This document shows, piece by piece, positions 18,665 through 48,097 of a stretch of DNA of 64,000 nucleotides. The notes under the pieces were generated by a model, which did no database searches, was not told the DNA's origin, and saw nothing but the letters and a program-made list of their open reading frames with translations. Both the position numbers and the translations under genes were made by a program. Source of the DNA: Escherichia coli (GTDB taxonomy: Bacteria > Pseudomonadota > Gammaproteobacteria > Enterobacterales > Enterobacteriaceae); assembly GCF_003334385.1 (NCBI RefSeq), contig NZ_QOWN01000025.1. One strand, 5' to 3'. Position 1 is the first letter of the stretch. Each line of letters opens with the position of its first letter.

Positions 18665-19000
18665 ATGGATAAAGAACGCATCATTCAGGAATTTGTGCCC
18701 GGCAAACAGGTCACACTGGCGCATCTCATCGCGCATCCCGGTGAGGAACTGGCGAAGAAAATCGGCGTTCCGGATGCGGGCGCAATTGGCATTATGACGC
18801 TAACTCCCGGCGAAACGGCGATGATCGCCGGTGATTTAGCGCTGAAAGCCGCTGATGTGCATATCGGTTTTCTCGACCGATTCAGCGGTGCATTGGTGAT
18901 TTATGGCTCGGTGGGCGCAGTAGAAGAAGCGTTATCACAAACCGTCAGCGGTTTAGGTCGCTTATTAAATTATACGCTTTGTGAAATGACCAAAAGTTAA
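18665..19000 (+). CDS. eutS: BMC shell protein EutS
   Basis: 111 aa from [10 protein letters not shown]...; PduU/EutS-type BMC domain. Confidence 0.9.
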
Positions 19001-19012
19001 TACGAGGCATTC

Positions 19013-19492
19013 ATGAAACGAATTGCGTTTGTGGGTAGCGTCGGGGCAGGAAAAACAACGTTATTTAATGCGTTGCAGGGGAATTATACCCTCGCCAGAA
19101 AAACACAGGCCGTGGAATTTAATGATAAGGGCGATATTGATACGCCGGGTGAATATTTTAACCATCCCCGCTGGTATCACGCCTTAATTACCACGCTACA
19201 GGATGTAGACATGCTGATCTATGTCCATGGCGCAAATGACCCGGAAAGTCGGTTGCCTGCCGGGTTGCTGGATATTGGCGTCAGCAAACGGCAAATCGCC
19301 GTCATCAGTAAAACGGACATGCCAGATGCTGACGTCGCCGCAACGCGAAAGTTATTGCTTGAGACGGGTTTCGAAGAGCCGATTTTCGAGCTAAACAGCC
19401 ACGACCCGCAAAGCGTGCAGCAACTGGTGGATTATCTGGCATCTCTCACCAAACAGGAGGAAGCAGGTGAAAAAACTCATCACAGCGAATGA
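19013..19492 (+). CDS. eutP: ethanolamine utilization GTPase/kinase-like protein EutP
   Basis: 159 aa; P-loop GSVGAGKTT. Confidence 0.9.
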   Translation: MKRIAFVGSVGAGKTTLFNALQGNYTLARKTQAVEFNDKGDIDTPGEYFNHPRWYHALITTLQDVDMLIYVHGANDPESRLPAGLLDIGVSKRQIAVISKTDMPDADVAATRKLLLETGFEEPIFELNSHDPQSVQQLVDYLASLTKQEEAGEKTHHSE

Positions 19493-20168
19493 TATTCGTG
19501 AAGCACACGCGCGCGGCGAACAGGCAATGTCCGTGGTTCTGCGCGCCAGCATTATTACCCCGGAAGCCCGTGAAGTGGCGGATCTACTGGGTTTTACCAT
19601 CACCGAATGTGATGAATCGATCCCGGTAACGGCGTCCGTGCCCGCCAGCGTGCCAGCCGACAAAACCGAAAGCCAGCGCATCCGCGAAACCATCATTGCC
19701 CAGCTGCCGGAAGGCCAGTTTACCGAAAGCCTGGTCGCACAGCTGATGGAAAAAGTGATGAAGGAAAAACAGTCGCTGGAGCAGGGCGCAATGCAGCCGA
19801 GCTTCAAATCGGTGACCGGCAAAGGCGGCATCAAAGTGATTGATGGCAGTAGCGTCAAGTTTGGTCGTTTCGACGGCGCAGAGCCGCATTGCGTGGGCTT
19901 GACTGATCTTGTGACCGGAGACGACGGCAGCAGCATGGCCGCCGGTTTTATGCAGTGGGAGAACGCATTCTTCCCGTGGACCCTGAACTACGACGAAATC
20001 GACATGGTGCTGGAAGGGGAGCTGCATGTTCGCCACGAAGGCCAAACCATGATCGCCAAAGCAGGCGACGTGATGTTTATCCCGAAAGGCTCCAGCATCG
20101 AATTTGGTACGACATCCAGCGTGAAATTCCTGTATGTCGCCTGGCCGGCTAACTGGCAATCCCTATGA
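19467..20168 (+). CDS. eutQ: ethanolamine utilization cupin protein EutQ
   Basis: 233 aa; matches EutQ. Confidence 0.9.
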   Translation: MKKLITANDIREAHARGEQAMSVVLRASIITPEAREVADLLGFTITECDESIPVTASVPASVPADKTESQRIRETIIAQLPEGQFTESLVAQLMEKVMKEKQSLEQGAMQPSFKSVTGKGGIKVIDGSSVKFGRFDGAEPHCVGLTDLVTGDDGSSMAAGFMQWENAFFPWTLNYDEIDMVLEGELHVRHEGQTMIAKAGDVMFIPKGSSIEFGTTSSVKFLYVAWPANWQSL

Positions 20169-20968
20169 AAGATTTCATCACCGAAGCATGGCTAAGAGCG
20201 AACCATACGCTCAGCGAAGGCGCAGAGATCCATCTCCCTGCGGACAGTCGCCTGACGCCCTCTGCCCGGGAGTTGCTGGAAAGCCGCCATCTGCGCATCA
20301 AGTTTATTGACGAGCAGGGCCGCCTGTTTGTTGACGATGAACAGCAGCAGCCGCAGCCCGTTCATGGGCTGACCAGTAGCGATGAACATCCGCAGGCGTG
20401 CTGCGAACTGTGTCGCCAGCCGGTGGCAAAAAAGCCGGATACGCTGACTCACCTGTCGGCGGAAAAAATGGTCGCCAAAAGCGATCCGCGTCTGGGTTTT
20501 CGCGCGGTTCTCGACAGCACCATTGCGCTGGCAGTGTGGCTGCAAATTGAACTGGCGGAACCGTGGCAGCCGTGGCTGGCGGATATCCGTTCGCGTCTTG
20601 GCAACATTATGCGCGCCGATGCGCTGGGGGAACCGCTGGGCTGCCAGGCGATTGTCGGGCTTTCTGACGAAGATCTGCATCGGCTTTCTCATCAGCCGCT
20701 GCGCTATCTCGACCACGATCATCTGGTGCCGGAAGCCAGCCACGGGCGCGATGCTGCGTTGCTCAATCTGCTACGCACCAAAGTGCGGGAAACCGAAACC
20801 GTAGCGGCGCAGGTCTTTATCACCCGCAGCTTTGAAGTATTACGCCCGGACATTTTGCAGGCGCTGAACCGCCTTTCGAGCACGGTCTACGTGATGATGA
20901 TCCTGAGCGTAACGAAGCAGCCGCTAACGGTGAAGCAGATCCAACAACGACTGGGGGAAACGCAATGA
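20165..20968 (+). CDS. eutT: cob(I)alamin adenosyltransferase EutT
   Basis: 267 aa; ATGA overlap with eutQ; matches EutT. Confidence 0.9.
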
Positions 20969-21981
20969 TTATTGAACGTTGTCGTGAACTGGCGTTGCGA
21001 GCGCCCGCCAGAGTGGTTTTTCCGGATGCGTTAGACCAACGTGTGCTGAAAGCCGCGCAATATTTACATCAACAAGGTCTGGCAACGCCCATTCTGGTCG
21101 CCAATCCGTTTGAACTTCGTCAGTTTGCGCTCAGTCACGGCGTGGCGATGGACGGGCTACAGGTGATTGATCCGCATGGCAACCTCGCAATGCGGGAAGA
21201 ATTTGCTCATCGCTGGCTGGCCCGCGCGGGCGAAAAAACGCCGCCGGATGCGCTGGAAAAACTTACCGACCCTCTGATGTTCGCCGCAGCAATGGTCAGC
21301 GCCGGTAAAGCGGATGTCTGTATCGCGGGCAACCTCTCTTCCACGGCAAATGTGCTGCGTGCCGGATTACGCATTATCGGCTTGCAGCCAGGCTGTAAAA
21401 CGCTCTCTTCCATTTTCCTGATGTTGCCACAGTACAGCGGCCCGGCGTTGGGCTTTGCCGATTGCAGCGTGGTGCCACAGCCGACGGCGGCGCAGCTGGC
21501 GGATATCGCGCTTGCCAGTGCCGAAACCTGGCGCGCCATCACCGGAGAAGAGCCGCGCGTGGCGATGCTGTCGTTTTCCAGCAATGGTAGCGCCCGTCAC
21601 CCCTGTGTTGCTAACGTCCAGCAGGCGACAGAAATCGTCCGTGAGCGCGCACCAAAGCTGGTGGTGGATGGCGAGTTACAGTTTGACGCCGCCTTCGTGC
21701 CGGAAGTGGCGGCGCAAAAAGCGCCTGCCAGCCCGCTACAGGGCAAGGCCAATGTGATGGTTTTTCCGTCGCTGGAAGCCGGAAATATTGGTTACAAAAT
21801 CGCACAACGACTCGGCGGATATCGTGCCGTCGGGCCACTGATACAAGGACTTGCCGCGCCGATGCACGATCTCTCTCGTGGTTGTAGCGTGCAGGAAATT
21901 ATCGAGCTGGCGCTGGTGGCAGCTGTGCCGCGTCAGACAGAAGTGAACCGCGAAAGCAGTTTACAAACACTGGTTGAATGA
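20965..21981 (+). CDS. eutD: phosphotransacetylase EutD
   Basis: 338 aa; PTA family. Confidence 0.92.
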
Positions 21982-22019
21982 ACGGTCCCGTTCTGGACCC
22001 TGATAAAGAGGAAAGCACA

Positions 22020-22313
22020 ATGGAAGCATTAGGAATGATCGAAACCCGGGGCCTGGTTGCACTGATTGAGGCTTCTGACGCGATGGTGAAAGCTGCGCGC
22101 GTCAAGCTGGTTGGTGTTAAGCAGATTGGCGGCGGCCTGTGTACTGCCATGGTTCGTGGTGATGTTGCAGCCTGTAAAGCCGCGACCGATGCAGGTGCCG
22201 CAGCGGCACAGCGTATCGGCGAGCTGGTATCTGTACACGTTATCCCGCGTCCGCACGGCGACCTGGAAGAAGTCTTCCCGATCGGCCTGAAAGGCGATAG
22301 CAGCAACCTGTAA
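22020..22313 (+). CDS. eutM: BMC shell protein EutM
   Basis: 97 aa from [12 protein letters not shown]...; canonical BMC-H. Confidence 0.92.
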
Positions 22314-22419
22314 TCACCCTGTGTGACGTCGATTCGGGCGTCACGCTCTCTCCTTTTTCATTTTACCTTCTGCGGAGGGTAGGGGGAGCTTTTACCTGAA
22401 ATACGCCACGGAGGCGGGT

Positions 22420-22707
22420 ATGAAACTGGCAGTCGTCACTGGACAAATTGTTTGTACCGTACGCCATCACGGACTGGCGCATGACAAATTGCTGATGGTG
22501 GAAATGATTGATCCACAAGGTAATCCTGACGGGCAATGCGCCGTCGCCATCGACAATATTGGCGCGGGAACCGGGGAGTGGGTGTTACTGGTGAGTGGCA
22601 GTTCCGCCCGCCAGGCGCATAAAAGCGAAACGTCACCGGTCGATCTGTGCGTGATTGGCATTGTCGATGAGGTGGTGTCTGGCGGTCAGGTAATTTTCCA
22701 CAAATAA
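22420..22707 (+). CDS. eutN: BMC vertex protein EutN
   Basis: 95 aa; EutN/CcmL family. Confidence 0.92.
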   Translation: MKLAVVTGQIVCTVRHHGLAHDKLLMVEMIDPQGNPDGQCAVAIDNIGAGTGEWVLLVSGSSARQAHKSETSPVDLCVIGIVDEVVSGGQVIFHK

Positions 22708-22718
22708 GGCAGAACATC

Positions 22719-24122
22719 ATGAATCAACAGGATATTGAACAGGTGGTGAAAGCGGTACTGCTGAAAATGCAAAGCAGTGACACGCCGTCCGCCGCCGTTC
22801 ATGAGATGGGCGTTTTCGCGTCCCTGGATGACGCCGTTGCGGCAGCCAAAGTCGCCCAGCAAGGGTTAAAAAGCGTGGCAATGCGCCAGTTAGCCATTGC
22901 TGCCATTCGTGAAGCAGGCGAAAAACACGCCAGAGATTTAGCGGAACTTGCCGTCAGTGAAACCGGCATGGGGCGCGTTGAAGATAAATTTGCAAAAAAC
23001 GTCGCTCAGGCGCGCGGCACACCAGGCGTTGAGTGCCTCTCTCCGCAAGTGCTGACTGGCGACAACGGCCTGACCCTAATTGAAAACGCACCCTGGGGCG
23101 TGGTGGCTTCGGTGACGCCTTCCACTAACCCGGCGGCAACCGTAATTAACAACGCCATCAGCCTGATTGCCGCGGGCAACAGCGTCATTTTTGCCCCGCA
23201 TCCGGCGGCGAAAAAAGTCTCCCAGCGGGCGATTACGCTGCTCAACCAGGCGATTGTTGCCGCAGGTGGGCCGGAAAACTTACTGGTTACTGTGGCAAAT
23301 CCGGATATCGAAACCGCGCAACGCTTGTTCAAGTTTCCGGGTATCGGCCTGCTGGTGGTAACCGGCGGCGAAGCGGTAGTAGAAGCGGCGCGTAAACACA
23401 CCAATAAACGTCTGATTGCCGCAGGCGCTGGCAACCCGCCGGTAGTGGTGGATGAAACCGCCGACCTCGCCCGTGCCGCTCAGTCCATCGTCAAAGGCGC
23501 TTCTTTCGATAACAACATCATTTGTGCCGACGAAAAGGTACTGATTGTTGTTGATAGCGTAGCCGATGAACTGATGCGTCTGATGGAAGGCCAGCACGCG
23601 GTGAAACTGACCGCAGAACAGGCGCAGCAGCTGCAACCGGTGTTGCTGAAAAATATCGACGAGCGCGGAAAAGGCACCGTCAGCCGTGACTGGGTTGGTC
23701 GCGACGCAGGCAAAATCGCGGCGGCAATCGGCCTTAAAGTTCCGCAAGAAACGCGCCTGCTGTTTGTGGAAACCACCGCAGAACATCCGTTTGCCGTGAC
23801 TGAACTGATGATGCCGGTGTTGCCCGTCGTGCGCGTCGCCAACGTGGCGGATGCCATTGCGCTAGCGGTGAAACTGGAAGGCGGTTGCCACCACACGGCG
23901 GCAATGCACTCGCGCAACATCGAAAACATGAACCAGATGGCGAATGCTATTGATACCAGCATTTTCGTTAAGAACGGACCGTGCATTGCCGGGCTGGGGC
24001 TGGGCGGGGAAGGCTGGACCACCATGACCATCACCACGCCAACCGGTGAAGGGGTAACCAGCGCGCGTACGTTTGTCCGTCTGCGTCGCTGTGTATTAGT
24101 CGATGCGTTTCGCATTGTTTAA
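22719..24122 (+). CDS. eutE: acetaldehyde dehydrogenase (CoA-acylating) EutE
   Basis: 467 aa; aldehyde dehydrogenase family. Confidence 0.93.
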   Translation: MNQQDIEQVVKAVLLKMQSSDTPSAAVHEMGVFASLDDAVAAAKVAQQGLKSVAMRQLAIAAIREAGEKHARDLAELAVSETGMGRVEDKFAKNVAQARGTPGVECLSPQVLTGDNGLTLIENAPWGVVASVTPSTNPAATVINNAISLIAAGNSVIFAPHPAAKKVSQRAITLLNQAIVAAGGPENLLVTVANPDIETAQRLFKFPGIGLLVVTGGEAVVEAARKHTNKRLIAAGAGNPPVVVDETADLARAAQSIVKGASFDNNIICADEKVLIVVDSVADELMRLMEGQHAVKLTAEQAQQLQPVLLKNIDERGKGTVSRDWVGRDAGKIAAAIGLKVPQETRLLFVETTAEHPFAVTELMMPVLPVVRVANVADAIALAVKLEGGCHHTAAMHSRNIENMNQMANAIDTSIFVKNGPCIAGLGLGGEGWTTMTITTPTGEGVTSARTFVRLRRCVLVDAFRIV

Positions 24123-24132
24123 GGAGTAACAG

Positions 24133-24969
24133 ATGGCGCACGACGAACAATGGCTCACCCCACGTCTGCAAACGGCGGCAACGCTGTGTAACCAGACGCC
24201 CGCCGCGACGGAATCTCCGCTGTGGCTGGGGGTGGATCTGGGCACCTGCGATGTGGTGTCGATGGTTGTCGACCGCGACGGTCAGCCAGTGGCGGTATGC
24301 CTCGACTGGGCCGATGTGGTTCGCGACGGCATCGTCTGGGATTTCTTCGGCGCTGTCACCATTGTTCGTCGCCATCTCGACACGCTCGAGCAGCAATTCG
24401 GTCGTCGTTTTAGCCATGCGGCGACTTCATTTCCTCCAGGTACGGACCCGCGTATTTCCATCAACGTGCTGGAATCTGCCGGACTGGAAGTGAGCCATGT
24501 GCTGGATGAGCCAACCGCAGTTGCGGATCTGCTGCAACTGGACAACGCCGGTGTAGTGGATATCGGCGGCGGCACTACCGGCATTGCCATCGTGAAAAAG
24601 GGCAAGGTGACGTACTCGGCGGATGAAGCCACCGGCGGACATCACATCTCTCTGACTCTCGCCGGAAATCGCCGTATTTCGCTGGAAGAGGCGGAGCAGT
24701 ACAAGCGCGGTCACGGTGAAGAGATTTGGCCTGCGGTGAAACCGGTGTACGAAAAAATGGCGGACATTGTCGCCCGGCATATTGAAGGGCAGGGCATTAC
24801 TGATTTATGGCTGGCGGGCGGCTCTTGTATGCAACCGGGCGTGGCGGAACTGTTTCGCAAACAATTCCCGGCGTTACAGGTGCATTTACCGCAGCACAGT
24901 TTGTTTATGACCCCGCTGGCGATCGCCAGTAGTGGGCGAGAGAAAGCGGAGGGGCTATATGCAAAATGA
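24133..24969 (+). CDS. eutJ: chaperonin-like protein EutJ
   Basis: 278 aa; DnaK/actin-like ATPase fold. Confidence 0.9.
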   Translation: MAHDEQWLTPRLQTAATLCNQTPAATESPLWLGVDLGTCDVVSMVVDRDGQPVAVCLDWADVVRDGIVWDFFGAVTIVRRHLDTLEQQFGRRFSHAATSFPPGTDPRISINVLESAGLEVSHVLDEPTAVADLLQLDNAGVVDIGGGTTGIAIVKKGKVTYSADEATGGHHISLTLAGNRRISLEEAEQYKRGHGEEIWPAVKPVYEKMADIVARHIEGQGITDLWLAGGSCMQPGVAELFRKQFPALQVHLPQHSLFMTPLAIASSGREKAEGLYAK

Positions 24970-26146
24970 ATTGCAGACCGCGCTCTTTCAGGCGTTCGAT
25001 ACCCTGAATCTGCAACGGGTAAAAACATTTAGCGTTCCACCGGTGACGCTTTGCGGTCCGGGCTCGGTGAGCAGTTGCGGACAGCAAGCGCAAACGCGTG
25101 GGCTGAAACATCTGTTCGTGATGGCAGACAGCTTTTTGCATCAGGCAGGGATGACCGCCGGGCTGACGCGTAGCCTGACCGTTAAAGGTATCGCCATGAC
25201 GCTCTGGCCATGTCCGGTGGGCGAACCGTGCATTACCGACGTGTGTGCAGCCGTGGCGCAGTTGCGTGAGTCAGGCTGTGATGGGGTGATCGCGTTTGGC
25301 GGCGGCTCGGTGCTGGATGCGGCGAAAGCCGTGACGTTGCTGGTGACGAACCCGGATAGCACGCTGGCAGAGATGTCAGAAACCAGCGTTCTGCAACCGC
25401 GCTTGCCGCTGATTGCCATTCCAACTACCGCCGGAACCGGCTCTGAAACCACCAATGTAACGGTGATTATCGACGCGGTGAGCGGGCGCAAGCAGGTGTT
25501 AGCCCATGCCTCGCTGATGCCGGATGTGGCGATCCTCGACGCCGCATTGACCGAAGGTGTGCCGTCGCATGTCACGGCGATGACCGGCATTGATGCGTTA
25601 ACCCATGCCATTGAAGCATACAGCGCCCTGAACGCTACACCGTTTACCGACAGTCTGGCGATTGGTGCCATTGCGATGATTGGCAAATCGCTGCCGAAAG
25701 CGGTGGGCTACGGTCACGACCTTGCCGCGCGCGAGAGCATGTTGCTGGCTTCATGTATGGCGGGAATGGCGTTTTCCAGTGCGGGTCTTGGGTTGTGCCA
25801 CGCGATGGCGCATCAGCCGGGCGCGGCGCTGCATATTCCGCACGGTCTCGCGAACGCCATGTTGCTGCCAACGGTGATGGAATTTAACCGGATGGTTTGT
25901 CGTGAACGCTTTAGTCAGATTGGTCGGGCACTGCGAACTAAAAAATCCGACGATCGTGACGCTATTAACGCGGTAAGTGAGCTGATTGCGGAAGTTGGGA
26001 TTGGTAAACGACTGGGCGATGTTGGTGCGACATCTGCGCATTACGGCGCATGGGCGCAGGCCGCGCTGGAAGATATTTGTCTGCGCAGTAACCCGCGTAC
26101 CGCCAGCCTGGAGCAGATTGTCGGCCTGTACGCAGCGGCGCAATAA
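24959..26146 (+). CDS. eutG: iron-containing alcohol dehydrogenase EutG
   Basis: ORF 24932..26146; Met at 24959 gives 395 aa; Fe-ADH motifs. Confidence 0.9.
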   Translation: MQNELQTALFQAFDTLNLQRVKTFSVPPVTLCGPGSVSSCGQQAQTRGLKHLFVMADSFLHQAGMTAGLTRSLTVKGIAMTLWPCPVGEPCITDVCAAVAQLRESGCDGVIAFGGGSVLDAAKAVTLLVTNPDSTLAEMSETSVLQPRLPLIAIPTTAGTGSETTNVTVIIDAVSGRKQVLAHASLMPDVAILDAALTEGVPSHVTAMTGIDALTHAIEAYSALNATPFTDSLAIGAIAMIGKSLPKAVGYGHDLAARESMLLASCMAGMAFSSAGLGLCHAMAHQPGAALHIPHGLANAMLLPTVMEFNRMVCRERFSQIGRALRTKKSDDRDAINAVSELIAEVGIGKRLGDVGATSAHYGAWAQAALEDICLRSNPRTASLEQIVGLYAAAQ

Positions 26147-26148
26147 AT

Positions 26149-26335
<187 letters not shown>

Positions 26336-26362
26336 AATAACAACTAACAGGGAGTAAAGGCG

Positions 26363-27589
26363 ATGGGAATTAACGAAATCATCATGTACATCATGATGTT
26401 CTTTATGCTGATAGCTGCCGTAGACAGGATCCTGTCGCAGTTCGGCGGTTCTGCTCGTTTCCTCGGTAAGTTCGGTAAAAGTATCGAAGGATCAGGCGGT
26501 CAGTTCGAAGAAGGCTTTATGGCAATGGGCGCACTGGGCCTGGCGATGGTCGGTATGACCGCGCTGGCACCGGTACTGGCTCACGTTCTCGGGCCGGTAA
26601 TTATTCCGGTTTACGAAATGCTCGGCGCTAACCCATCGATGTTCGCCGGAACACTGCTGGCGTGCGATATGGGCGGCTTCTTCCTCGCCAAAGAGCTGGC
26701 GGGCGGCGACGTAGCCGCGTGGCTATACTCTGGGTTAATTCTCGGGTCGATGATGGGGCCAACGATTGTGTTTTCCATTCCGGTGGCGCTCGGCATTATC
26801 GAACCTTCTGACCGTCGTTATCTGGCGCTCGGCGTGCTGGCGGGCATTGTGACCATTCCGATTGGTTGTATCGCTGGTGGTCTGGTTGCTATGTACTCCG
26901 GTGTGCAGATCAACGGCCAGCCGGTGGAATTCACTTTCGCCCTGATCCTGATGAACATGATCCCGGTGATCATTGTTGCGATTCTGGTGGCGCTGGGGCT
27001 GAAATTCATCCCGGAAAAAATGATCAACGGCTTCCAGATCTTCGCCAAATTCCTCGTTGCATTGATCACCCTCGGTCTTGCCGCTGCGGTAGTGAAATTC
27101 CTGCTTGGCTGGGAACTGATCCCCGGTCTGGATCCTATCTTTATGGCCCCTGGCGATAAACCCGGTGAGGTGATGCGCGCCATTGAAGTTATCGGTTCTA
27201 TCTCCTGCGTTCTGTTAGGGGCGTATCCGATGGTGCTGCTGCTGACTCGCTGGTTTGAAAAACCGCTGATGAGCGTCGGTAAAGTACTGAATATGAACAA
27301 CATCGCGGCAGCCGGCATGGTGGCAACGCTTGCCAACAACATCCCGATGTTCGGCATGATGAAGCAGATGGATACCCGCGGCAAAGTCATCAACTGCGCC
27401 TTCGCCGTTTCCGCTGCTTTCGCCCTGGGCGACCACTTAGGCTTCGCCGCTGCCAACATGAACGCCATGATCTTCCCGATGATTGTCGGCAAGTTGATCG
27501 GCGGCGTAACGGCGATTGGCGTGGCGATGATGCTGGTGCCAAAAGAAGACGCGACCGCGACTAAAACCGAAGCGGAGGCACAATCGTGA
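26363..27589 (+). CDS. eutH: ethanolamine permease EutH
   Basis: 408 aa polytopic membrane protein; matches EutH. Confidence 0.92.
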   Translation: MGINEIIMYIMMFFMLIAAVDRILSQFGGSARFLGKFGKSIEGSGGQFEEGFMAMGALGLAMVGMTALAPVLAHVLGPVIIPVYEMLGANPSMFAGTLLACDMGGFFLAKELAGGDVAAWLYSGLILGSMMGPTIVFSIPVALGIIEPSDRRYLALGVLAGIVTIPIGCIAGGLVAMYSGVQINGQPVEFTFALILMNMIPVIIVAILVALGLKFIPEKMINGFQIFAKFLVALITLGLAAAVVKFLLGWELIPGLDPIFMAPGDKPGEVMRAIEVIGSISCVLLGAYPMVLLLTRWFEKPLMSVGKVLNMNNIAAAGMVATLANNIPMFGMMKQMDTRGKVINCAFAVSAAFALGDHLGFAAANMNAMIFPMIVGKLIGGVTAIGVAMMLVPKEDATATKTEAEAQS

Positions 27590-28989
27590 ACACTCGCCAG
27601 CTATTGAGCGTCGGTATCGATATCGGCACCACCACCACCCAGGTGATTTTCTCCCGGCTGGAGCTGGTTAACCGTGCGGCGGTGTCGCAGGTGCCGCGCT
27701 ACGAATTCATTAAACGCGAAATTAGCTGGCAAAGTCCGGTGTTCTTTACCCCTGTCGATAAACAGGGCGGTTTAAAAGAAGCGGAACTGAAAACCTTAAT
27801 ACTCGAGCAATATCATGCTGCGGGTATTGAGCCGGAAAGCGTTGATTCTGGTGCCATCATCATCACCGGTGAAAGCGCGAAAACCCGCAATGCTCGCCCG
27901 GCGGTGATGGCGCTCTCTCAGTCGCTGGGCGATTTTGTCGTTGCCAGCGCCGGGCCGCACCTCGAATCCGTGATCGCCGGTCACGGAGCCGGGGCACAAA
28001 CCCTTTCTGAACAACGGCTGTGTCGGGTACTGAATATCGACATCGGCGGTGGCACCGCGAACTACGCCCTGTTCGATGCCGGAAAAATCAGCGGCACTGC
28101 CTGCCTCAACGTCGGTGGTCGCCTGCTGGAAACCGACAGCCACGGGCGCGTGGTTTACGCTCATAAACCGGGGCAGATGATTGTGGATGAGTGCTTCGGT
28201 GCAGGCACCGACGCCCGTTCGCTGACCGGCGCGCAGCTGGTGCAGGTGACCCGGCGGATGGCAGAACTGATTGTCGAAGTGATTGACGGAACGCTCTCAC
28301 CGCTCGCGCAGGCATTGATGCAAACCGGTTTGCTGCCCGCAGGTGTTACGCCCGAAATCATTACGCTTTCTGGCGGCGTGGGCGAATGTTATCGCCACCA
28401 GCCCGCCGACCCGTTCTGTTTTGCCGATATTGGCCCGCTGCTGGCAACTGCGCTGCATGACCATCCGCGCCTGCGTGAGATGAACGTACAGTTTCCGGCG
28501 CAAACCGTGCGCGCCACGGTGATTGGCGCGGGCGCGCATACCCTTTCGCTCTCTGGCAGCACAATCTGGCTTGAGGGCGTACAACTGCCGCTGCGCAATT
28601 TGCCGGTGGCGATCCCGATTGATGAAACGGATCTGGTGGGGGCCTGGCAACAGGCGCTGATTCAGCTGGATCTTGATCCCAAAACTGACGCGTACGTGCT
28701 GGCGCTTCCCGCCTCGCTGCCTGTGCGTTACGCCGCGGTACTGACGGTCATCAACGCGTTGGTCGATTTCGTCGCGCGTTTTCCGAATCCGCATCCCCTG
28801 CTGGTGGTGGCCGGGCAGGACTTTGGTAAAGCTCTGGGCATGTTGTTGCGCCCACAGCTACAACAACTCCCGTTGGCAGTCATTGACGAAGTGATTGTCC
28901 GCGCGGGGGACTATATCGACATTGGTACGCCTCTTTTTGGCGGATCGGTTGTGCCGGTGACGGTGAAATCACTCGCATTTCCTTCCTGA
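27586..28989 (+). CDS. eutA: ethanolamine ammonia-lyase reactivase EutA
   Basis: 467 aa; matches EutA. Confidence 0.92.
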   Translation: MNTRQLLSVGIDIGTTTTQVIFSRLELVNRAAVSQVPRYEFIKREISWQSPVFFTPVDKQGGLKEAELKTLILEQYHAAGIEPESVDSGAIIITGESAKTRNARPAVMALSQSLGDFVVASAGPHLESVIAGHGAGAQTLSEQRLCRVLNIDIGGGTANYALFDAGKISGTACLNVGGRLLETDSHGRVVYAHKPGQMIVDECFGAGTDARSLTGAQLVQVTRRMAELIVEVIDGTLSPLAQALMQTGLLPAGVTPEIITLSGGVGECYRHQPADPFCFADIGPLLATALHDHPRLREMNVQFPAQTVRATVIGAGAHTLSLSGSTIWLEGVQLPLRNLPVAIPIDETDLVGAWQQALIQLDLDPKTDAYVLALPASLPVRYAAVLTVINALVDFVARFPNPHPLLVVAGQDFGKALGMLLRPQLQQLPLAVIDEVIVRAGDYIDIGTPLFGGSVVPVTVKSLAFPS

Positions 28990-29000
28990 GGGAACGACTT

Positions 29001-30363
29001 ATGAAACTAAAGACCACATTGTTCGGCAATGTATATCAGTTTAAGGATGTAAAAGAGGTGCTGGCTAAAGCCAACGAACTGCGTTCGGGGGATGTGCTGG
29101 CGGGCGTCGCAGCGGCAAGCTCACAGGAGCGCGTGGCGGCAAAGCAGGTGTTGTCGGAAATGACCGTAGCGGACATCCGCAATAATCCGGTGATTGCCTA
29201 TGAAGATGACTGCGTGACGCGGCTGATTCAGGACGATGTTAACGAAACGGCCTACAACCAGATTAAAAACTGGAGCATCAGCGAACTGCGTGAGTATGTG
29301 CTGAGCGATGAAACCAGCGTGGACGACATTGCCTTTACCCGCAAAGGGCTGACCTCGGAAGTGGTCGCGGCGGTAGCGAAGATTTGCTCCAACGCGGACC
29401 TGATCTACGGCGCGAAGAAAATGCCGGTAATCAAAAAGGCCAATACCACCATCGGTATTCCGGGCACCTTTAGCGCCCGTTTGCAGCCAAATGACACCCG
29501 TGACGACGTGCAAAGTATCGCCGCGCAAATCTACGAAGGGCTTTCCTTCGGGGTGGGCGATGCGGTGATCGGCGTTAACCCGGTGACTGACGACGTGGAA
29601 AACTTAAGCCGCGTGTTGGATACCATCTATGGCGTGATCGACAAATTCAACATCCCAACTCAGGGCTGTGTACTGGCGCACGTCACCACCCAGATCGAAG
29701 CGATCCGTCGTGGCGCACCGGGCGGGCTGATTTTCCAGAGTATCTGTGGCAGCGAAAAAGGGCTGAAAGAGTTTGGCGTGGAGCTGGCGATGCTCGACGA
29801 AGCGCGCGCAGTGGGCGCGGAGTTCAACCGTATCGCCGGGGGAAAACTGCCTCTACTTCGAAACCGGACAAGGCTCTGCGCTATCCGCTGGCGCTAACTT
29901 CGGCGCAGACCAGGTAACGATGGAAGCACGTAACTACGGGCTGGCGCGTCATTACGATCCGTTTATCGTCAACACCGTGGTCGGCTTTATTGGGCCGGAG
30001 TATCTCTACAACGACCGCCAGATTATCCGTGCTGGCTTAGAAGATCACTTTATGGGCAAGCTGAGCGGCATCTCTATGGGCTGTGACTGCTGTTATACCA
30101 ACCACGCTGACGCTGACCAGAACCTCAACGAAAACCTGATGATCCTGCTCGCCACCGCAGGCTGCAACTACATCATGGGGATGCCGCTGGGTGATGACAT
30201 CATGCTCAACTACCAGACCACCGCATTCCACGATACCGCCACTGTGCGTCAGTTACTCAACCTGCGCCCGTCACCGGAGTTTGAACGCTGGCTGGAAAGC
30301 ATGGGCATTATGGCAAACGGTCGCCTGACCAAACGGGCGGGCGATCCGTCACTGTTCTTCTGA
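29001..30363 (+). pseudogene. eutB: ethanolamine ammonia-lyase heavy chain EutB, interrupted by +1 frameshift (or homopolymer sequencing error)
   Basis: ORF 29001..29897 matches EutB residues 1 to about 281, then diverges after ...EFNRIAG; ORF 29773..30363 in the +1 frame matches the EutB C-terminus from ENCLYFETGQGS... to the end; the shift coincides with the G5 run at 29838..29842 where gcc ggg gaa aac is expected. Confidence 0.8.
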
Positions 30364-30383
30364 TGACGCGGAGATAACATATC

Positions 30384-31271
30384 ATGGATCAAAAACAGAT
30401 TGAAGAAATTGTACGCAGCGTGATGGCGTCAATGGGACAAGCGGCCCCCGCGCCGTCAGAAGCAAAGTGCGCCACCACCAACTGTGCGGCACCGGTGACC
30501 TCGGAAAGCTGTGCGCTGGATTTAGGTTCCGCTGAAGCAAAAGCGTGGATTGGTGTTGAAAATCCGCATCGCGCAGACGTATTAACAGAACTGCGCCGCA
30601 GCACCGTGGCCCGCGTTTGTACCGGTCGTGCCGGTCCGCGTCCACGTACGCAGGCGCTGCTGCGTTTCCTGGCCGATCACTCTCGTTCGAAAGATACCGT
30701 ACTGAAAGAAGTGCCGGAAGAGTGGGTGAAAGCGCAGGGCTTGCTGGAAGTACGCTCTGAAATTAGCGACAAAAATCTCTACCTGACTCGCCCGGATATG
30801 GGCCGCCGCCTGTGTGCAGAAGCTGTTGAAGCGCTGAAAGCGCAGTGTGTTGCCAATCCGGACGTACAGGTCGTTATTTCTGATGGCCTGTCAACTGATG
30901 CGATCACCGTGAACTACGAAGAGATCCTGCCACCGCTGATGGCGGGCCTGAAACAGGCCGGGCTGAAAGTCGGTACACCATTCTTTGTTCGTTATGGTCG
31001 CGTGAAGATTGAAGATCAGATCGGTGAGATCCTCGGCGCGAAAGTAGTGATCCTGCTGGTGGGCGAACGTCCGGGGTTGGGTCAGTCAGAAAGCCTCTCC
31101 TGCTACGCCGTTTACTCGCCGCGTATGGCGACCACCGTTGAGGCCGATCGCACCTGTATCTCTAACATTCACCAGGGCGGCACGCCGCCGGTTGAAGCCG
31201 CAGCCGTCATTGTGGATTTGGCGAAACGTATGCTGGAGCAGAAAGCATCCGGCATCAACATGACCCGATAA
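30384..31271 (+). CDS. eutC: ethanolamine ammonia-lyase light chain EutC
   Basis: 295 aa; matches EutC. Confidence 0.92.
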
Positions 31272-31280
31272 GGAGGCATC

Positions 31281-31940
31281 ATGCCAGCTTTAGATTTGAT
31301 TCGACCGTCTGTCACCGCTATGCGGGTGATTGCCTCCGTTAACGCCGATTTTGCGCGTGAACTGAAATTGCCGCCGCATATTCGTAGCCTCGGTCTGATT
31401 TCTGCCGACTCCGATGACGTCACCTACATTGCCGCTGATGAAGCGACCAAGCAGGCGATGGTGGAAGTGGTGTATGGCCGCTCGCTATATGCGGGCGCTG
31501 CACACGGCCCGTCACCGACTGCCGGTGAAGTGCTGATTATGCTTGGTGGGCCAAACCCGGCGGAAGTGCGTGCAGGTCTGGATGCGATGATTGCGCATAT
31601 TGAAAATGGCGCAGCTTTCCAGTGGGCTAATGACGCGCAAGATACGGCATTCCTGGCACATGTAGTTTCGCGTACCGGTTCTTATCTCTCATCAACCGCC
31701 GGGATCACGCTTGGCGATCCGATGGCGTATCTGGTGGCACCGCCGCTGGAAGCGACCTATGGCATTGATGCAGCCCTGAAGTCTGCCGACGTACAGCTGG
31801 CGACCTATGTCCCGCCACCGTCTGAAACCAACTACTCGGCAGCATTTTTAACCGGTAGCCAGGCAGCGTGTAAAGCAGCCTGTAACGCCTTTACCGATGC
31901 AGTGCTGGAAATCGCGCGTAATCCAATCCAGCGTGCGTAA
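31281..31940 (+). CDS. eutL: BMC shell protein EutL (tandem BMC domain)
   Basis: 219 aa; matches EutL. Confidence 0.92.
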
Positions 31941-31952
31941 CGGAGGTTGCCG

Positions 31953-32453
31953 ATGATCAATGCACTGGGATTGCTGGAAGTGGACGGCATGGTCGCCGCG
32001 ATAGATGCAGCGGATGCCATGCTCAAAGCAGCTAACGTTCGTCTGCTCAGTCACGAAGTGCTTGACCCTGGTCGCTTAACGCTGGTGGTGGAAGGCGATC
32101 TGGCGGCGTGTCGTGCGGCGCTGGACGCAGGTTGTGCTGCCGCGATGCGTACCGGGCGTGTCATCAGCCGCAAGGAGATCGGTCGGCCAGACGATGACAC
32201 CCAGTGGCTGGTTACTGGCTTTAACCGCCAGCCGAAGCAACCCGTAAGGGAACCCGACGCGCCAGTTATCGTCGCGGAATCTGCTGACGAGTTGTTGGCG
32301 CTGTTAACATCAGTACGTCAGGGAATGACGGCAGGAGAAGTGGCTGCCCACTTTGGCTGGCCGCTGGAAAAAGCCAGAAATGCGCTCGAACAGCTCTTTT
32401 CTGCCGGGACGTTACGTAAACGCAGTAGTCGTTATCGTCTCAAGCCCCATTAA
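31953..32453 (+). CDS. eutK: BMC shell protein EutK
   Basis: 166 aa from MINALGLLEV...; BMC domain plus C-terminal extension. Confidence 0.9.
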   Translation: MINALGLLEVDGMVAAIDAADAMLKAANVRLLSHEVLDPGRLTLVVEGDLAACRAALDAGCAAAMRTGRVISRKEIGRPDDDTQWLVTGFNRQPKQPVREPDAPVIVAESADELLALLTSVRQGMTAGEVAAHFGWPLEKARNALEQLFSAGTLRKRSSRYRLKPH

Positions 32454-32498
32454 CCTGTCGGAGGTGCCGGGTGTCCTACAACACCCGGCATTAACATC

Positions 32499-33551
32499 AT
32501 GAAAAAGACCCGTACAGCCAATTTGCACCATCTTTATCATGAACCCTTACCCGAAAACCTGAAGCTCACGCCGAAGGTCGAAGTGGATAATGTTCATCAA
32601 CGACAGACAACGGATGTCTATGAACATGCTTTAACGATTACCGCCTGGCAGCAGATTTACGATCAGCTGCATCCGGGCAAGTTTCATGGTGAATTTACGG
32701 AAATTCTACTCGATGATATTCAGGTTTTTCGTGAATACACCGGTCTGGCGCTGCGTCAGTCGTGCCTGGTCTGGCCGAACTCGTTCTGGTTTGGCATTCC
32801 GGCGACGCGCGGTGAGCAGGGATTTATCGGTTCGCAATGTCTGGGAAGCGCGGAAATCGCCACCCGCCCTGGTGGCACTGAATTTGAACTGAGCACGCCG
32901 GATGATTACACGATCCTGGGCGTGGTGCTTTCTGAAGATGTCATCACCCGGCAGGCTAACTTTTTGCATAACCCGGATCGGGTATTACATATGTTGCGTA
33001 ACCAGTCGGCGCTGGAAGTGAAAGAGCAGCATAAAGCCGCGCTGTGGGGCTTTGTCCAACAGGCGCTGGCGACGTTTTGCGAGAATCCGGAAAATCTCCA
33101 TCAGCCTGCAGTGCGAAAAGTGCTGGGGGATAATTTGCTAATGGCGATGGGGGCCATGCTGGAAGAAGCGCAACCAATGGTGACGGCGGAAAGCATCAGT
33201 CATCAGAGTTACCGTCGATTGCTTTCCCGCGCCCGTGAATATGTGCTGGAAAACATGTCCGAACCGGTGACGGTGCTGGATTTGTGTAATCAACTGCATG
33301 TCAGCCGCCGCACGCTACAAAACGCGTTTCACGCTATTTTAGGCATTGGCCCGAACGCGTGGCTGAAACGCATTCGCCTGAACGCCGTACGCCGCGAACT
33401 GATAAGTCCGTGGTCGCAAAGTATGACGGTAAAAGACGCCGCCATGCAGTGGGGATTCTGGCATCTGGGGCAATTTGCCACGGATTACCAGCAGCTGTTT
33501 TCCGAGAAGCCGTCACTGACGCTGCATCAGCGGATGCGGGAGTGGGGGTGA
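32499..33551 (+). CDS. eutR: AraC-family activator of the eut operon EutR
   Basis: 350 aa; C-terminal AraC HTH. Confidence 0.92.
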
Positions 33552-33556
33552 GGGAG

Positions 33557-34459
<903 letters not shown>

Positions 34460-35329
34460 TTATCGCTTTTTCGAATGTGCTTTCTGGTTGTCGAACCAGT
34501 GGAAATAACTGATCACGCCTTCAGCAATCGCTGTGGCGATTTTCTGACGAAACGCCGCCGTGCCTAACAGCCGTTCTTCTTCCGGGTTGGTGATAAACGA
34601 GGTTTCCACCAGCACCGAAGGAACCGACGGTGATTTCAACACCACAAATGCCGCTTGTTCGGTGTTGCGGCTGTGCAGTTTATGCACCGGCTTAATCTTC
34701 TTCAGAATATGCGAGCCGAGCGTCAGACTATTTTTAATGGTATCTGTTTGCACCAGATCAAACAGCACTTGTTGCAATAGGTGATCCTTGTCAGTCGCCT
34801 TTTTACCGGCAACTTCATCGGCGCGGTTTTCGCGTTCAGACAGGTATTTCGCCATTGCGCTACTTGCCCCACGGTTAGAGAGGGCAAATACCGAAGCACC
34901 GGCAGCTTTCGGGTTGGTAAAGCCATCGGCATGAATTGACATAAACAGATCTGCGCCATGTTTATGGGCGATTTCAACGCGATCGTAAAGTGGGATAAAC
35001 GTATCGCCAGAACGCGTTAAACGCGCATCAATCCCATGATTACGCAAAATGGAACGGACGTTTTTAGCAATCGCCAGCACCACATGTTTTTCTTTCGAAC
35101 CGTTGCGTCCGATCGCTCCGGTATCAATTCCGCCGTGACCTGGATCGAGAACAACGACACGTTTGCCGCCAGATTTTTTGGCTTTCGGCTTGCTGTGTCC
35201 GTTGCTGGTTTTTAAAAGTTCGTCTTTGGCGATGGCTTGCGACATTCCTGACAACGTCAGGGCAGCCAAACCGGCTTTCAGCACCTGGCGGCGCGAAGTG
35301 AGTGTTTTTAGTGGTTTAAAAGTGCTCAT
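34460..35329 (-). CDS. amiA: N-acetylmuramoyl-L-alanine amidase AmiA
   Basis: 289 aa; twin-arginine signal TSRRQVLKAG; Amidase_3 domain. Confidence 0.93.
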   Translation of the reverse strand: MSTFKPLKTLTSRRQVLKAGLAALTLSGMSQAIAKDELLKTSNGHSKPKAKKSGGKRVVVLDPGHGGIDTGAIGRNGSKEKHVVLAIAKNVRSILRNHGIDARLTRSGDTFIPLYDRVEIAHKHGADLFMSIHADGFTNPKAAGASVFALSNRGASSAMAKYLSERENRADEVAGKKATDKDHLLQQVLFDLVQTDTIKNSLTLGSHILKKIKPVHKLHSRNTEQAAFVVLKSPSVPSVLVETSFITNPEEERLLGTAAFRQKIATAIAEGVISYFHWFDNQKAHSKKR

Positions 35330-35542
35330 ACGGCCTGAGTTGTAATAATAAAGTTCCAGATGTTATATCGTATCGCGTAATCCGTTACGACGGTTTGCTG
35401 TTGAGAATTGTTTTACTTTTCATTTCAATAGTTGACAACTCCCCATTATGCCACTTTTTCAACCGATTTTCGTCAGATATTGGCTAATTCGACCGTTCAC
35501 GCCATAATCAGCCTTTTAACCCGCAAAAAGGTAACGAATACC

Positions 35543-35968
35543 ATGGAGATACGCGTATTTCGCCAGGAAGATTTCGAAGAGGTCATCACCCTTTGGGAGC
35601 GTTGCGACTTGCTGCGTCCGTGGAACGATCCGGAAATGGACATCGAGCGTAAGATGAACCATGACGTCAGTTTGTTTTTGGTCGCTGAGGTAAACGGTGA
35701 CGTGGTCGGAACGGTGATGGGCGGTTATGACGGGCATCGCGGGTCTGCTTATTATCTTGGCGTGCATCCAGAGTTTCGTGGGCGTGGGATTGCCAATGCG
35801 TTGCTTAATCGGCTGGAGAAAAAGCTGATTGCTCGTGGCTGCCCGAAAATTCAGATCAATGTGCCGGAAGATAACGACATGGTGCTCGGAATGTATGAAC
35901 GCCTGGGATATGAACACGCCGACGTGCTGAGTCTGGGTAAGCGTTTGATTGAAGATGAAGAGTACTGA
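35543..35968 (+). CDS. ypeA: GNAT acetyltransferase YpeA
   Basis: ORF 35432..35968; Met at 35543 gives 141 aa ([14 protein letters not shown]...). Confidence 0.88.
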
Positions 35969-36404
35969 GTTTCATCCTGTCCATTATGATGCGCACGGTC
36001 GCCTGCGTTTACCCTTGCTCTTCTGGCTTGTGCTATTGCTTCAGGCGCGAACCTGGGTGCTGTTTGTCATTGCCGGTGCGTCGCGCGAGCAGGGTACTGC
36101 GCTGCTAAATCTGTTTTATCCCGATCACGATAATTTCTGGCTGGGGCTGATTCCTGGCATTCCGGCGGTGCTGGCGTTTTTGTTGAGCGGTCGGCGGGCT
36201 ACGTTTCCTCGCACCTGGCGTGTACTCTATTTTCTGTTGCTGTTGGCGCAGGTGGTTTTACTTTGCTGGCAACCGTGGCTGTGGCTGAACGGTGAATCCG
36301 TTAGCGGTATCGGTCTGGCGCTGGTAGTGGCGGATATTGTGGCGTTAATCTGGCTGCTGACCAATCGACGTTTACGCGCTTGTTTTAATGAAGTAAAAGA
36401 ATAA
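35955..36404 (+). CDS. yfeZ: inner membrane protein YfeZ
   Basis: About 149 aa hydrophobic protein; overlaps the ypeA 3' end. Confidence 0.85.
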
Positions 36405-36464
36405 CGGCACTTTTTGGTGAATTTGCACTCCAAGCAACGTTATTGAATAACCAAAGGAAGTGAC

Positions 36465-37040
36465 ATGAAATCGCTGCGTTTAATGTTATGCGCTATGCCA
36501 TTGATGCTGACCGGCTGTTCCACGATGTCGTCAGTTAACTGGTCTGCCGCTAACCCGTGGAACTGGTTTGGGTCGTCCACCAAAGTGAGCGAGCAGGGCG
36601 TGGGTGAATTAACGGCGTCCACACCACTGCAAGAACAAGCCATTGCCGATGCGCTTGATGGCGATTATCGCCTGCGCAGCGGAATGAAAACCGCGAACGG
36701 CAACGTGGTGCGCTTTTTTGAAGTGATGAAGGGCGACAACGTGGCGATGGTGATTAACGGCGATCAAGGCACGATCAGTCGCATTGACGTGCTGGATAGC
36801 GATATTCCTGCTGACACCGGTGTTAAAATCGGTACACCGTTTAGCGACCTTTACAGCAAAGCATTTGGCAATTGCCAAAAAGCTGATGGTGATGATAATC
36901 GTGCCGTCGAATGTAAAGCCGAAGGCAGTCAACATATTAGCTACCAGTTCAGCGGGGAATGGCGTGGTCCTGAAGGGTTAATGCCTTCGGACGATACCCT
37001 GAAAAACTGGAAAGTCAGTAAAATTATCTGGCGGCGTTAA
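36465..37040 (+). CDS. yfeY: lipoprotein YfeY
   Basis: 191 aa; lipobox LTGCS. Confidence 0.88.
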   Translation: MKSLRLMLCAMPLMLTGCSTMSSVNWSAANPWNWFGSSTKVSEQGVGELTASTPLQEQAIADALDGDYRLRSGMKTANGNVVRFFEVMKGDNVAMVINGDQGTISRIDVLDSDIPADTGVKIGTPFSDLYSKAFGNCQKADGDDNRAVECKAEGSQHISYQFSGEWRGPEGLMPSDDTLKNWKVSKIIWRR

Positions 37041-37051
37041 TTTGCGTCTGA

Positions 37052-38035
<984 letters not shown>

Positions 38036-38116
38036 GCGTTTCTGATTCATTGATTAAAGGCCAGGCAGTAACATTACTGACTGGCCTCAGATTGTTGACC
38101 AAGTGCGCGTTGTACA

Positions 38117-38216
38117 CGCCGGATGCGGCGTGAACGCCTTATCCGGCCTACGAAATCGTGCTAATTCAATATATTGTGGGCTCCACGTAGGCCTGATAAG
38201 CGTAGCGCATCAGGCA
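38117..38216. repeat. REP/BIME between yfeX and yfeW
   Basis: gccggatgcggcgtgaacgccttatccggcctac and ggcctgataagcgtagcgcatcaggc palindromes. Confidence 0.8.
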
Positions 38217-38274
38217 GTTTTGCGTTTGTCAGCACTCTCAGACCAGCCAGTAACATTACTGACTGGCCTTTTTA

Positions 38275-39576
38275 TTACTTCTGCTTTAACGCCGCATACA
38301 CCTGATCAACTACCCAACCATAAGTTGCAATCGGCAACTGACCGCTTTCGAACATATTGGGATTCTTTTGCGGATCGGCAACCGGCGAATGTGGCTTGTT
38401 GCTTAACATCACAATCGTCATATGATTCACCGGATCGATAACGGTCACCGTTCCGGTCCAGCCAGTGTGACCGTAGGTTTGCGGGCTTGCCAGCGTGCCA
38501 AACGTCGGCGTCATGGTGGCATTACCATTCACGCGCCAGCCGAGGCCAAAAGTGGCATCTTCCTTAGAGCTGGTGGTGAACATCTTCACCGTTTCCGCAT
38601 TGAACAGCTGCACATCACCATAGCCCCCGCCGTTCAGCATCGTTTGCATTAACACCGCAATATCGCCGGTATTGGAAAACAAACCTGCGTGCCCGGAAAC
38701 GCCGCCCATCGAATAAAAGGCTTTTTCATCGTGCACCTGACCCCAGAGAGTGGAGGTGCGGATATTCGGGAAATGGATCACGCCATCGCGGGTATTGCCG
38801 TTCAATTCCGTGGCGGCAATTTGTTGCGGTTTAAAGCCTTTCAGCAGCGGGTTAAATACCGTATGTGTCAGGCCGAGCGGGCGATAAATCGACTCTTCAA
38901 CATAGCGGTCAAGCGGCTGACCGGTAACCGACTCGACGATAAATCCAAGCAGCATATAATCGACATCGCTGTAGATATGTTTGCTGCCGGGCTGATATTC
39001 CAGCGGCGTGCGCTTGATCATCTCCAGCGTCTGGCCTTTATCCTGGGAATATAACGCGCCCGCGACCGCTTTATTCGGGTATTGCGGATCTGCCGGGAAA
39101 CCGCCGCTGTGATGCAGCAGGTCAGAAATCCGCAGGGTGTTTTTGCCTTTAATGGTGTCATTTGGACTATCGGCAAACCCCGGAATATATTTCGCAATCC
39201 GATCGTCAGGATGCAGTTTGCCTTCGCTCATCAGCTTTTGCAGGGCGAAGTTCGTGGCGTACATTTTGGTGTTTGAGGCCAGGTCATACAGCGTCCCGGT
39301 GGTGGCTTTGACAGGCTGTTCCATCAACACGCTGCCATCGTACTTTTTCGCCGCTCCCCAGGCTTTGCGATACACAATCTGATTATCTTTAATGATCAGC
39401 AGGTTTACGCTGGGATAACCGACATCAACTTGCTGGCTAATCCAGCGATCCATCTGGTTAAGCCGTTCGACGTTAAACCCTGCTTTCTCTGGCGAGCTTT
39501 CTGTCAGAACAGGGTATTTTGCGGCGCTGACGCTACAACTAACAGCCAGCAGAGAAAGATAGAGCATTGTCCGTTT
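38275..39576 (-). CDS. yfeW: penicillin-binding protein 4B (beta-lactamase-fold DD-peptidase) YfeW
   Basis: ORF 38275..39666; Met at 39576 gives about 433 aa with signal peptide; SxxK-type motif SNTK. Confidence 0.88.
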   Translation of the reverse strand, partial: KRTMLYLSLLAVSCSVSAAKYPVLTESSPEKAGFNVERLNQMDRWISQQVDVGYPSVNLLIIKDNQIVYRKAWGAAKKYDGSVLMEQPVKATTGTLYDLASNTKMYATNFALQKLMSEGKLHPDDRIAKYIPGFADSPNDTIKGKNTLRISDLLHHSGGFPADPQYPNKAVAGALYSQDKGQTLEMIKRTPLEYQPGSKHIYSDVDYMLLGFIVESVTGQPLDRYVEESIYRPLGLTHTVFNPLLKGFKPQQIAATELNGNTRDGVIHFPNIRTSTLWGQVHDEKAFYSMGGVSGHAGLFSNTGDIAVLMQTMLNGGGYGDVQLFNAETVKMFTTSSKEDATFGLGWRVNGNATMTPTFGTLASPQTYGHTGWTGTVTVIDPVNHMTIVMLSNKPHSPVADPQKNPNMFESGQLPIATYGWVVDQVYAALKQK

Positions 39577-39583
39577 CATGATA

Positions 39584-41008
<1,425 letters not shown>

Positions 41009-41011
41009 GGG

Positions 41012-41908: not shown

Positions 41909-42071
41909 CGGTGGTGACCTTACTATTTACGATCAAATAATTGCAGATGTATGGAATCATATATCCCGAATTGACAGGCTTAAAGGAATCATTGAGTCTA
42001 CACTCGCAGAGTGTGAAGAGCGTCATAAGAACTTAAGCGGAATTTATGCTGCCAGCCCAGGAGAGTGGAAG
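41909..42071. promoter_or_regulatory. murQ / murR divergent promoter-operator region
   Basis: 163-bp intergenic region between divergent murQ and murR; function inferred from gene arrangement only. Confidence 0.4.
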
Positions 42072-42929: not shown

Positions 42930-43057
42930 TGCATAAAGCAGCGACTGGATTGAGATTTTCCTGAATTAGTGAGCTGATCCGCAGCAATATTTTGTTTATC
43001 CTGTATTTTCAGAGGGAATGGAGTGTAACGCTCTGTATTAACAAGGAGAGCATTAAA

Positions 43058-47964: not shown

Positions 47965-48036
47965 TAGGTTGAGTGAATGTTAAACGCCCGGAGGCGCTTC
48001 CCGCGATCCGGGCTTTTTAATGGCAAGGTTTGTAAC

Positions 48037-48075
48037 CTGTAGACCTGATAAGACGCGCAAGCGTCGCATCAGGCA
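48037..48075. repeat. REP element (cysA-cysM)
   Basis: cctgataagacgcgcaagcgtcgcatcagg palindrome. Confidence 0.75.
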
Positions 48076-48097
48076 ACACCACGTATGGATAGAGATC

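Follow-up and report, generated by a model that had tools for sequence, protein, structure and literature searches.

A single inserted G disrupts eutB in a rare phylogroup A lineage of Escherichia coli

The locus described here lies in a 64,000-nucleotide stretch of Escherichia coli DNA from contig NZ_QOWN01000025.1 (this whole stretch is called the window), in which the reading frame of eutB, which encodes the large ethanolamine ammonia-lyase subunit, is interrupted. The question raised by this locus was whether the interruption is a mutation carried by the bacterium or an error of sequencing, and, if it is a mutation, what became of the eut operon around it. The first-pass annotation, made from the letters alone, had proposed that one extra G in a run of four breaks eutB and had named a homopolymer sequencing error as the alternative. 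The parts of the broken gene in the window were as follows.

29001..30363, plus strand: eutB pseudogene, 1363 bp instead of 1362; annotated by PGAP as 'frameshifted' in strain SCU-104
29001..29897, plus strand: truncated eutB ORF, the exact product of which is found on about 105 contigs
29842..30363, plus strand: stranded +1-frame remainder of eutB, from Glu281 to Phe453 and including Glu287
29920..30363, plus strand: ORF of 147 amino acids starting at Met307 (ATG), reported by gene callers as a second EutB fragment

Direct reading of the sequence revealed GGGGG at positions 29838..29842 (+), where the normal run is GGGG. The window reads ATC GCC GGG GGA AAA CTG at the site and genomes with an intact eutB read GCC GGG GAA AAC TGC; codon 280 is GGG, followed by GGA where GAA is normal. 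The ORF at 29001..29897 encoded 298 amino acids and consisted of EutB residues 1-280 and 17 out-of-frame residues. This 17-residue tail read GKLPLLRNRTRLCAIRW R and was followed by a TAA stop codon at 29895..29897. From 29842 onward, the +1 frame read ENCLYFETGQGS... and reached the normal stop codon at 30361..30363, and the ORF list contained a +1-frame ORF that overlapped the first one, ended at 30363 and carried ...ENCLYFETGQGSALSAGANFGADQVTMEARNYGL... through to the normal EutB C-terminus. At the DNA level, eutB differed from its K-12 counterpart by a single base (99.9% identity, 1363 versus 1362 bases). When one G was deleted in silico, a 453-residue EutB was obtained, which chain A of PDB 3ABO, the heavy chain of the crystallised E. 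coli ethanolamine ammonia-lyase, matched over residues 1-453 with 1019.5 bits. Against the NCBIfam EutB profile NF011649 (cut-off 554 bits; the family is also covered by Pfam PF06751), the repaired 453-residue protein scored 664.7 bits, above the cut-off, whereas the truncated 298-residue product scored 356.1 bits, below it, and was matched only over residues 4-280. Judged by its sequence, the 298-residue product is that of a pseudogene of an EutB family member and not of a working member. The translated product lacked the C-terminal part of the barrel as well as Glu287, the codon for which was located in the untranslated +1 frame. The sequence, the ORF frames and the intact relatives all bore out the proposal that one extra G in a G4 run breaks eutB. 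The match to EutB extended over 280 codons, not the 'first 281 or so' of the first-pass annotation, the other coordinates of which were all right.

The extra-G site is a homopolymer, where single-base indels are a typical long-read error, and the true genome might therefore have carried GGGG and an intact eutB. Evidence on this came from other assemblies. The exact 298-residue truncated product was found in 204 index blocks and on about 105 contigs from NCBI, ENA, JGI/IMG and Logan, with KTE14 and an NCTC strain among the sources. The five Gs were read directly in the DNA of SCU-104 and of six further sequences, L002, L003, L004, L005, L013 and L017, which came from several assemblers and projects: L002 was a SPAdes assembly with a coverage of 237, L003 a MEGAHIT assembly, L004 and L013 NCBI draft genomes, and L005 the NCTC assembly UGFF01000002.1. 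The independent draft assembly L017 (GCA_002190145.1) was 100% identical to the window over 29584..51008 (21.4 kb), G5 included. The comparison with eutB of close relatives, which had been suggested as a check, was run: MB06232, the closest genome with an intact eutB, carried G4, and SCU-104 and the drafts shared G5. In 50 kb compared with MB06232, the extra G was the only indel, and the first 61 kb of the window showed 0 indels and 16 substitutions relative to SCU-104. Since no further indels were present relative to either genome, the window assembly was not riddled with indel errors, and since the window and SCU-104 were different genomes, the extra G was common to two distinct genomes. The extra G also co-segregated with nested SNPs and secondary mutations, which are described below. 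Indel errors do exist in some records, as the NCTC assembly L005 carried three further single-base deletions nearby. Nevertheless, the occurrence of the same allele in many independent assemblies, a high-coverage SPAdes assembly and a MEGAHIT assembly among them, refuted the alternative of a sequencing or assembly error, which is extremely unlikely and for practical purposes excluded; as read from these assemblies, the extra G is a real inherited mutation. For annotators, this means that the eutB frameshift is real and that the gene should stay a pseudogene. The three deletions of L005, located at window equivalents 22868, 33075 and 34270, split eutE, eutR and hemF in this assembly only, and they may have arisen in the assembly process and not in the bacterium.

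The allele was rare among complete genomes. A 70-base query around the site was 100% identical in only one of the 5,426 complete RefSeq E. coli genomes, SCU-104, and 5,234 other complete genomes matched the 70-mer imperfectly only. A G5-specific 30-mer, which seeds only on G5, also found a match in SCU-104 alone (1 of 5,426) and can serve as a simple marker of this rare phylogroup A lineage. SCU-104 belonged to phylogroup A and ST8125, and PGAP labelled its eutB pseudogene 'frameshifted'; the strain came from a healthy student, sampled by rectal swab (PMC11251922). The possibility that the window was SCU-104 itself was rejected on the basis of the 16 substitutions in 61 kb, a 2,599-bp deletion, and a stop codon in the eutN of SCU-104 that was missing from the window. 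MB06232, a Galapagos seawater isolate, showed six differences from the window in 50 kb, and the eut region of the window was essentially the phylogroup A consensus.

Substitutions among the G5 sequences formed a nested and conflict-free pattern. L004 and L005 had 21997 C, 28489 T and 37670 A in common, SCU-104, L002 and L003 had 39378 C in common, and 22612 T and 34994 A were common to SCU-104 and L002. The nested SNPs fit one origin of G5 followed by clonal descent. Over the 21-50 kb compared, the window equals the phylogroup A consensus, and for this reason no substitution was found that marks all G5 carriers; a single origin is therefore parsimonious rather than proven. The G run was also G3 in one assembly of uncertain quality (L011), and thus it can change repeatedly. 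The window and SCU-104 diverged by about 2.6e-4 per site, and a rough comparison with general E. coli clock rates suggests an age of the G5 allele on the order of centuries. The description of the lesion as a 'recent pseudogenisation' therefore holds on an evolutionary scale only: the allele was not private to the isolate, and as many as about 16 substitutions in 61 kb separated its carriers. Transitions made up 15 of the 16 substitutions by which SCU-104 differed from the window. With MB06232 as the outgroup over 50 kb, 9 of 11 changes were placed on the SCU-104 branch, most of them from G:C to A:T, and the two branches had uneven lengths and a skewed mutation spectrum.

The operon that surrounds the lesion was laid out in the window as follows.

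18665..33551, plus strand: 17-gene eut operon, eutSPQTDMNEJGHABCLKR, as annotated by PGAP in SCU-104 and MB06232, which are near-identical
22420..22707, plus strand: eutN, intact in the window
27586..28989, plus strand: eutA, intact in the window
30384..31271, plus strand: eutC, encoding the small subunit, intact and without its partner
32499..33551, plus strand: eutR, intact in the window

The broken eutB sat between eutA (27586..28989) and eutC (30384..31271), as in the eut operon. In the window, no internal stops were found in the 16 other eut genes, eutB being the sole exception, and the DNA of these 16 genes was identical to that of MB06232 genes annotated as intact. Over the whole operon, the extra G was the sole difference between the window and MB06232, in which all 17 eut genes were annotated as intact. 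The view that the operon is otherwise intact was thus correct for the 16 genes of the window; it did not hold lineage-wide, as several relatives carried second knock-outs in eutN, eutA or eutR, listed here by window position.

22612, plus strand: eutN Q65*, CAG to TAG (C to T), in SCU-104 and L002
28489, plus strand: eutA Q302*, CAG to TAG (C to T), in L004, L005, KTE14 and an NCTC strain (28 contigs)
32622, plus strand: eutR E42*, GAA to TAA (G to T), in L003; L013 had the same 209-residue EutR remnant

Within the G5 clade, three nonsense, four missense and one synonymous point changes were counted in the eut genes, a tally of only eight events in which variants were enriched since the display of loci favours differing neighbour proteins. 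The flanking genes had no disruptive change, and their missense changes were roughly equal in number to the synonymous ones. In the 64 kb of SCU-104, PGAP flagged two pseudogenes only, and both were eut genes. This pattern of decay fits the relaxed selection that we infer for the eut operon after its first knock-out.

The 64-residue EutN product was considered as a counter of the eutN-null sub-lineage and was rejected, as the same product, found on 190 contigs in total, was also present in Shigella sonnei and S. boydii; its presence there implied that the eutN mutation was recurrent. Both eutN Q65* and eutB Q304* were found on more than one background. Each changed a CCAGG Dcm site at its inner C: the site at 22611..22615 for eutN Q65 and that at 29910..29914 for eutB Q304. 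The inner C of CCAGG Dcm sites is a classical C-to-T mutational hot spot, and the recurrence of the two nonsense mutations suggests hot spots of 5-methylcytosine deamination. In L003, positions 6147..6189 (window 25147..25189, in eutG) contained six substitutions in 43 bp, five of them synonymous, which were seen in no other G5 carrier; this patch looks like a short recombination tract.

We consider it very likely that a G was inserted in an ancestor within rare phylogroup A bacteria and inherited clonally, with loss of ethanolamine ammonia-lyase and then decay of the operon. This explanation, the best overall, joins the observed insertion, inheritance, rarity and secondary lesions to a slippage event, a loss of activity and growth, and a relaxation of selection that we infer. 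The base was most likely added to the GGGG run spanning eutB codons 280-281 by replication slippage (slipped-strand mispairing), and the insertion would have been passed on clonally from the ancestor of the rare lineage since then. The ribosome would translate 280 correct codons and 17 wrong ones before the stop codon, and the alpha subunit would lack its final 173 residues. The missing Glu287 is described as a key catalytic residue for radical-pair formation in ethanolamine ammonia-lyase (PMC4413051). No ethanolamine ammonia-lyase would be formed, and neither ammonia nor acetaldehyde would be released from ethanolamine. EutBC and the eut operon are required for ethanolamine use (PMC5821096, PMC11334477). 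Because absence of EutB implies absence of the ammonia-lyase, and absence of the enzyme implies no ethanolamine use, a G5 strain is predicted from its genotype to draw neither nitrogen nor carbon from ethanolamine. The remaining 16 genes, which encode the shell, the transporter, the reactivase, the downstream enzymes and the regulator, would be left without the first step of the pathway. With selection on the pathway gone, separate descendants would have gained nonsense mutations in eutN, eutA or eutR, and the window would represent the early state with the first hit only.

Whether the two halves of the broken gene could still cooperate was considered. The 147-residue ORF starting at Met307 is a possible product of reinitiation without residues 281-306. 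Complementation of the 1-280 product by this fragment is not expected, as residues 281-306, including Glu287, would be missing from both. An ORF starting with TTG at 29773 was rejected as a complementing fragment, as it would require initiation inside a translated region. EutR was intact in the window, and sensing of ethanolamine and B12 may persist. The untranslated stretch from the premature stop codon to eutC was about 490 bases long and could exert polarity on eutCLKR.

Some enzyme activity would be kept if the ribosome itself corrected the frame. In such leaky or programmed +1 frameshifting, tRNA-Gly would slip on GGG-G and the normal ...A-G-E-N-C... would be made; a +1 slip at this position recreates the wild-type protein residue for residue, the GGA that occupies the A site in the zero frame is not an abundant codon in E. 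coli, and classical +1 insertions in G runs can be suppressed by altered tRNA-Gly. The site has some likeness to the programmed +1 frameshift of prfB (release factor 2), since in both cases the downstream frame is restored by a +1 shift and the P-site tRNA could re-pair one base downstream. However, conservation across bacteria marks the prfB site, where a stop codon lies in frame and a Shine-Dalgarno-like element upstream stimulates the shift. The eutB G5 site shares none of these features: it had no A-site stop codon and no separate Shine-Dalgarno-like element 3 nt upstream, it was missing from 5,425 of the 5,426 complete genomes, and the intact eutB genes read directly carried GGGG. Spontaneous slippage at such sites normally amounts to a percent or less, and the nonsense mutations in eutA, eutN and eutR of the descendants would be unexpected were the pathway still important. 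Frameshifting that keeps useful activity is therefore very unlikely. A reversible switch, in which the G run acts as an on/off contingency tract for ethanolamine use, would account for the three lengths of the run, G4, G5 and the G3 of a single assembly, but it is hardly credible here. A run of 4-5 Gs is far shorter than known phase-variable tracts, and all eight sequences of the lineage (the window, SCU-104, L002-L005, L013 and L017) carried G5 with no length heterogeneity. The supposed OFF state was found in just 1 of 5,426 complete genomes, and the second hits that followed G5 are irreversible.

The account of one insertion followed by clonal inheritance is compatible with either a neutral or a selected loss, which differ only in the cause of the spread. 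If the loss was selected, bacteria without EutBC activity, and later without the regulator, shell or reactivase, would have fared better in the niche of this lineage, for instance because they were spared acetaldehyde, B12 competition or the expense of a microcompartment that serves no purpose. The nonsense fraction points in this direction, as 3 of the 8 point changes in the eut genes of the clade were nonsense and random substitutions are expected to give a few percent, as do the independent eutB knock-outs found elsewhere (Q304*, a 13-bp duplication and G3). On the other hand, the events were few and their ascertainment was biased toward variant neighbourhoods, the recurrent nonsense sites eutN Q65 and eutB Q304 were Dcm sites, at which recurrence needs no selection, and the G5 lineage is rare. 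We consider a selected loss unlikely on balance. A bolder form, in which the lineage is a natural time series of the dismantling of a microcompartment operon, with eutB lost first and then positively selected hits in eutR, eutN (shell vertex) and eutA (reactivase), is similarly doubtful. If it were true, an organelle without its first enzyme would be costly, and giving up ethanolamine catabolism would be an adaptation to certain commensal niches and not mere drift.

Other natural lesions of the same gene were encountered. The eutB Q304* mutation, a C-to-T change at a Dcm site, was present on two allele backgrounds, and the 147-residue C-terminal EutB fragment was found in 3,891 index blocks, many of them named Shigella sonnei. 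In L010 and L012, the 13 bp at 29878..29890 (GCGCTATCCGCTG), which lie between two GCGCTA repeats, were duplicated in tandem, and eutB was broken as a result; the duplication lay on different eutB alleles and probably arose twice. In L011, the run was shortened to G3, the opposite slippage. These three kinds of alleles resembled G5 in affecting the same gene, with lesions at 29838-29911 and the same 147-residue C-terminal fragment, and their carriers resembled the window in that the flanking eut genes were mostly intact, but they were different mutational events on other allele backgrounds. The clustering of lesions at 29838-29911 was considered as a sign of a hot region and was rejected as an ascertainment effect, as the loci had been retrieved with the Met307 fragment.

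Natural inactivation of the operon has been described in other strains. In K-12 BW25113/MG1655, a cryptic prophage lies downstream of eutA, and its removal restores an intact operon (PMC11334477). K-12 and the window are alike in that both are phylogroup A cases in which a natural lesion inactivates a 17-gene eut operon that is complete in other respects and leaves, or in the window would leave, the strain eut-minus, but the K-12 lesion is a prophage between genes, whereas that of the window is one base inside eutB with eutA and eutB adjacent. A bovine commensal E. coli strain is expected to be unable to use ethanolamine owing to lesions in the operon (PMC6168858); this case and that of the window are both commensal cases of operon lesions, likened by description, and differ in the lesions and the lineage. 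No published description of the eutB G5 allele was found in a literature search. The allele is an ordinary and already annotated gene loss by a well known mutational route, its fragment having been deposited since the KTE14 genome, and it reveals no new mechanism. Ethanolamine use is discussed as a gut-competition trait of E. coli and enteric pathogens, and here the insertion of one base would have deprived a rare commensal lineage of this trait. The lineage provides natural single-, double- and regulator-null eut genotypes that could serve in competition experiments.

The window differed from its relatives at two further places outside the operon. At the junction 61090..61097, a 2,599-bp deletion was present relative to SCU-104 and other E. 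coli. It took the 3' two-thirds of yfeR and all of yfeN and xapA, and it joined yfeR at about codon 89 to a position 5 nt upstream of the xapB start, with a 3-bp microhomology (AAC); the junction was found in 0 of 5,426 complete E. coli genomes. In murP (minus strand), changes at 39903 and 39999 caused the missense substitutions G369E and P337L in the N-acetylmuramic acid PTS transporter MurP. These changes were 96 bp apart, both were G:C-to-A:T transitions, and in the first set of sequences compared only the window carried them. The exact MurP variant was present on 7 contigs, including those of GCA_002190145.1 and of the runs ERR1948963 and SRR7819145, and it marked the sub-lineage of the window.
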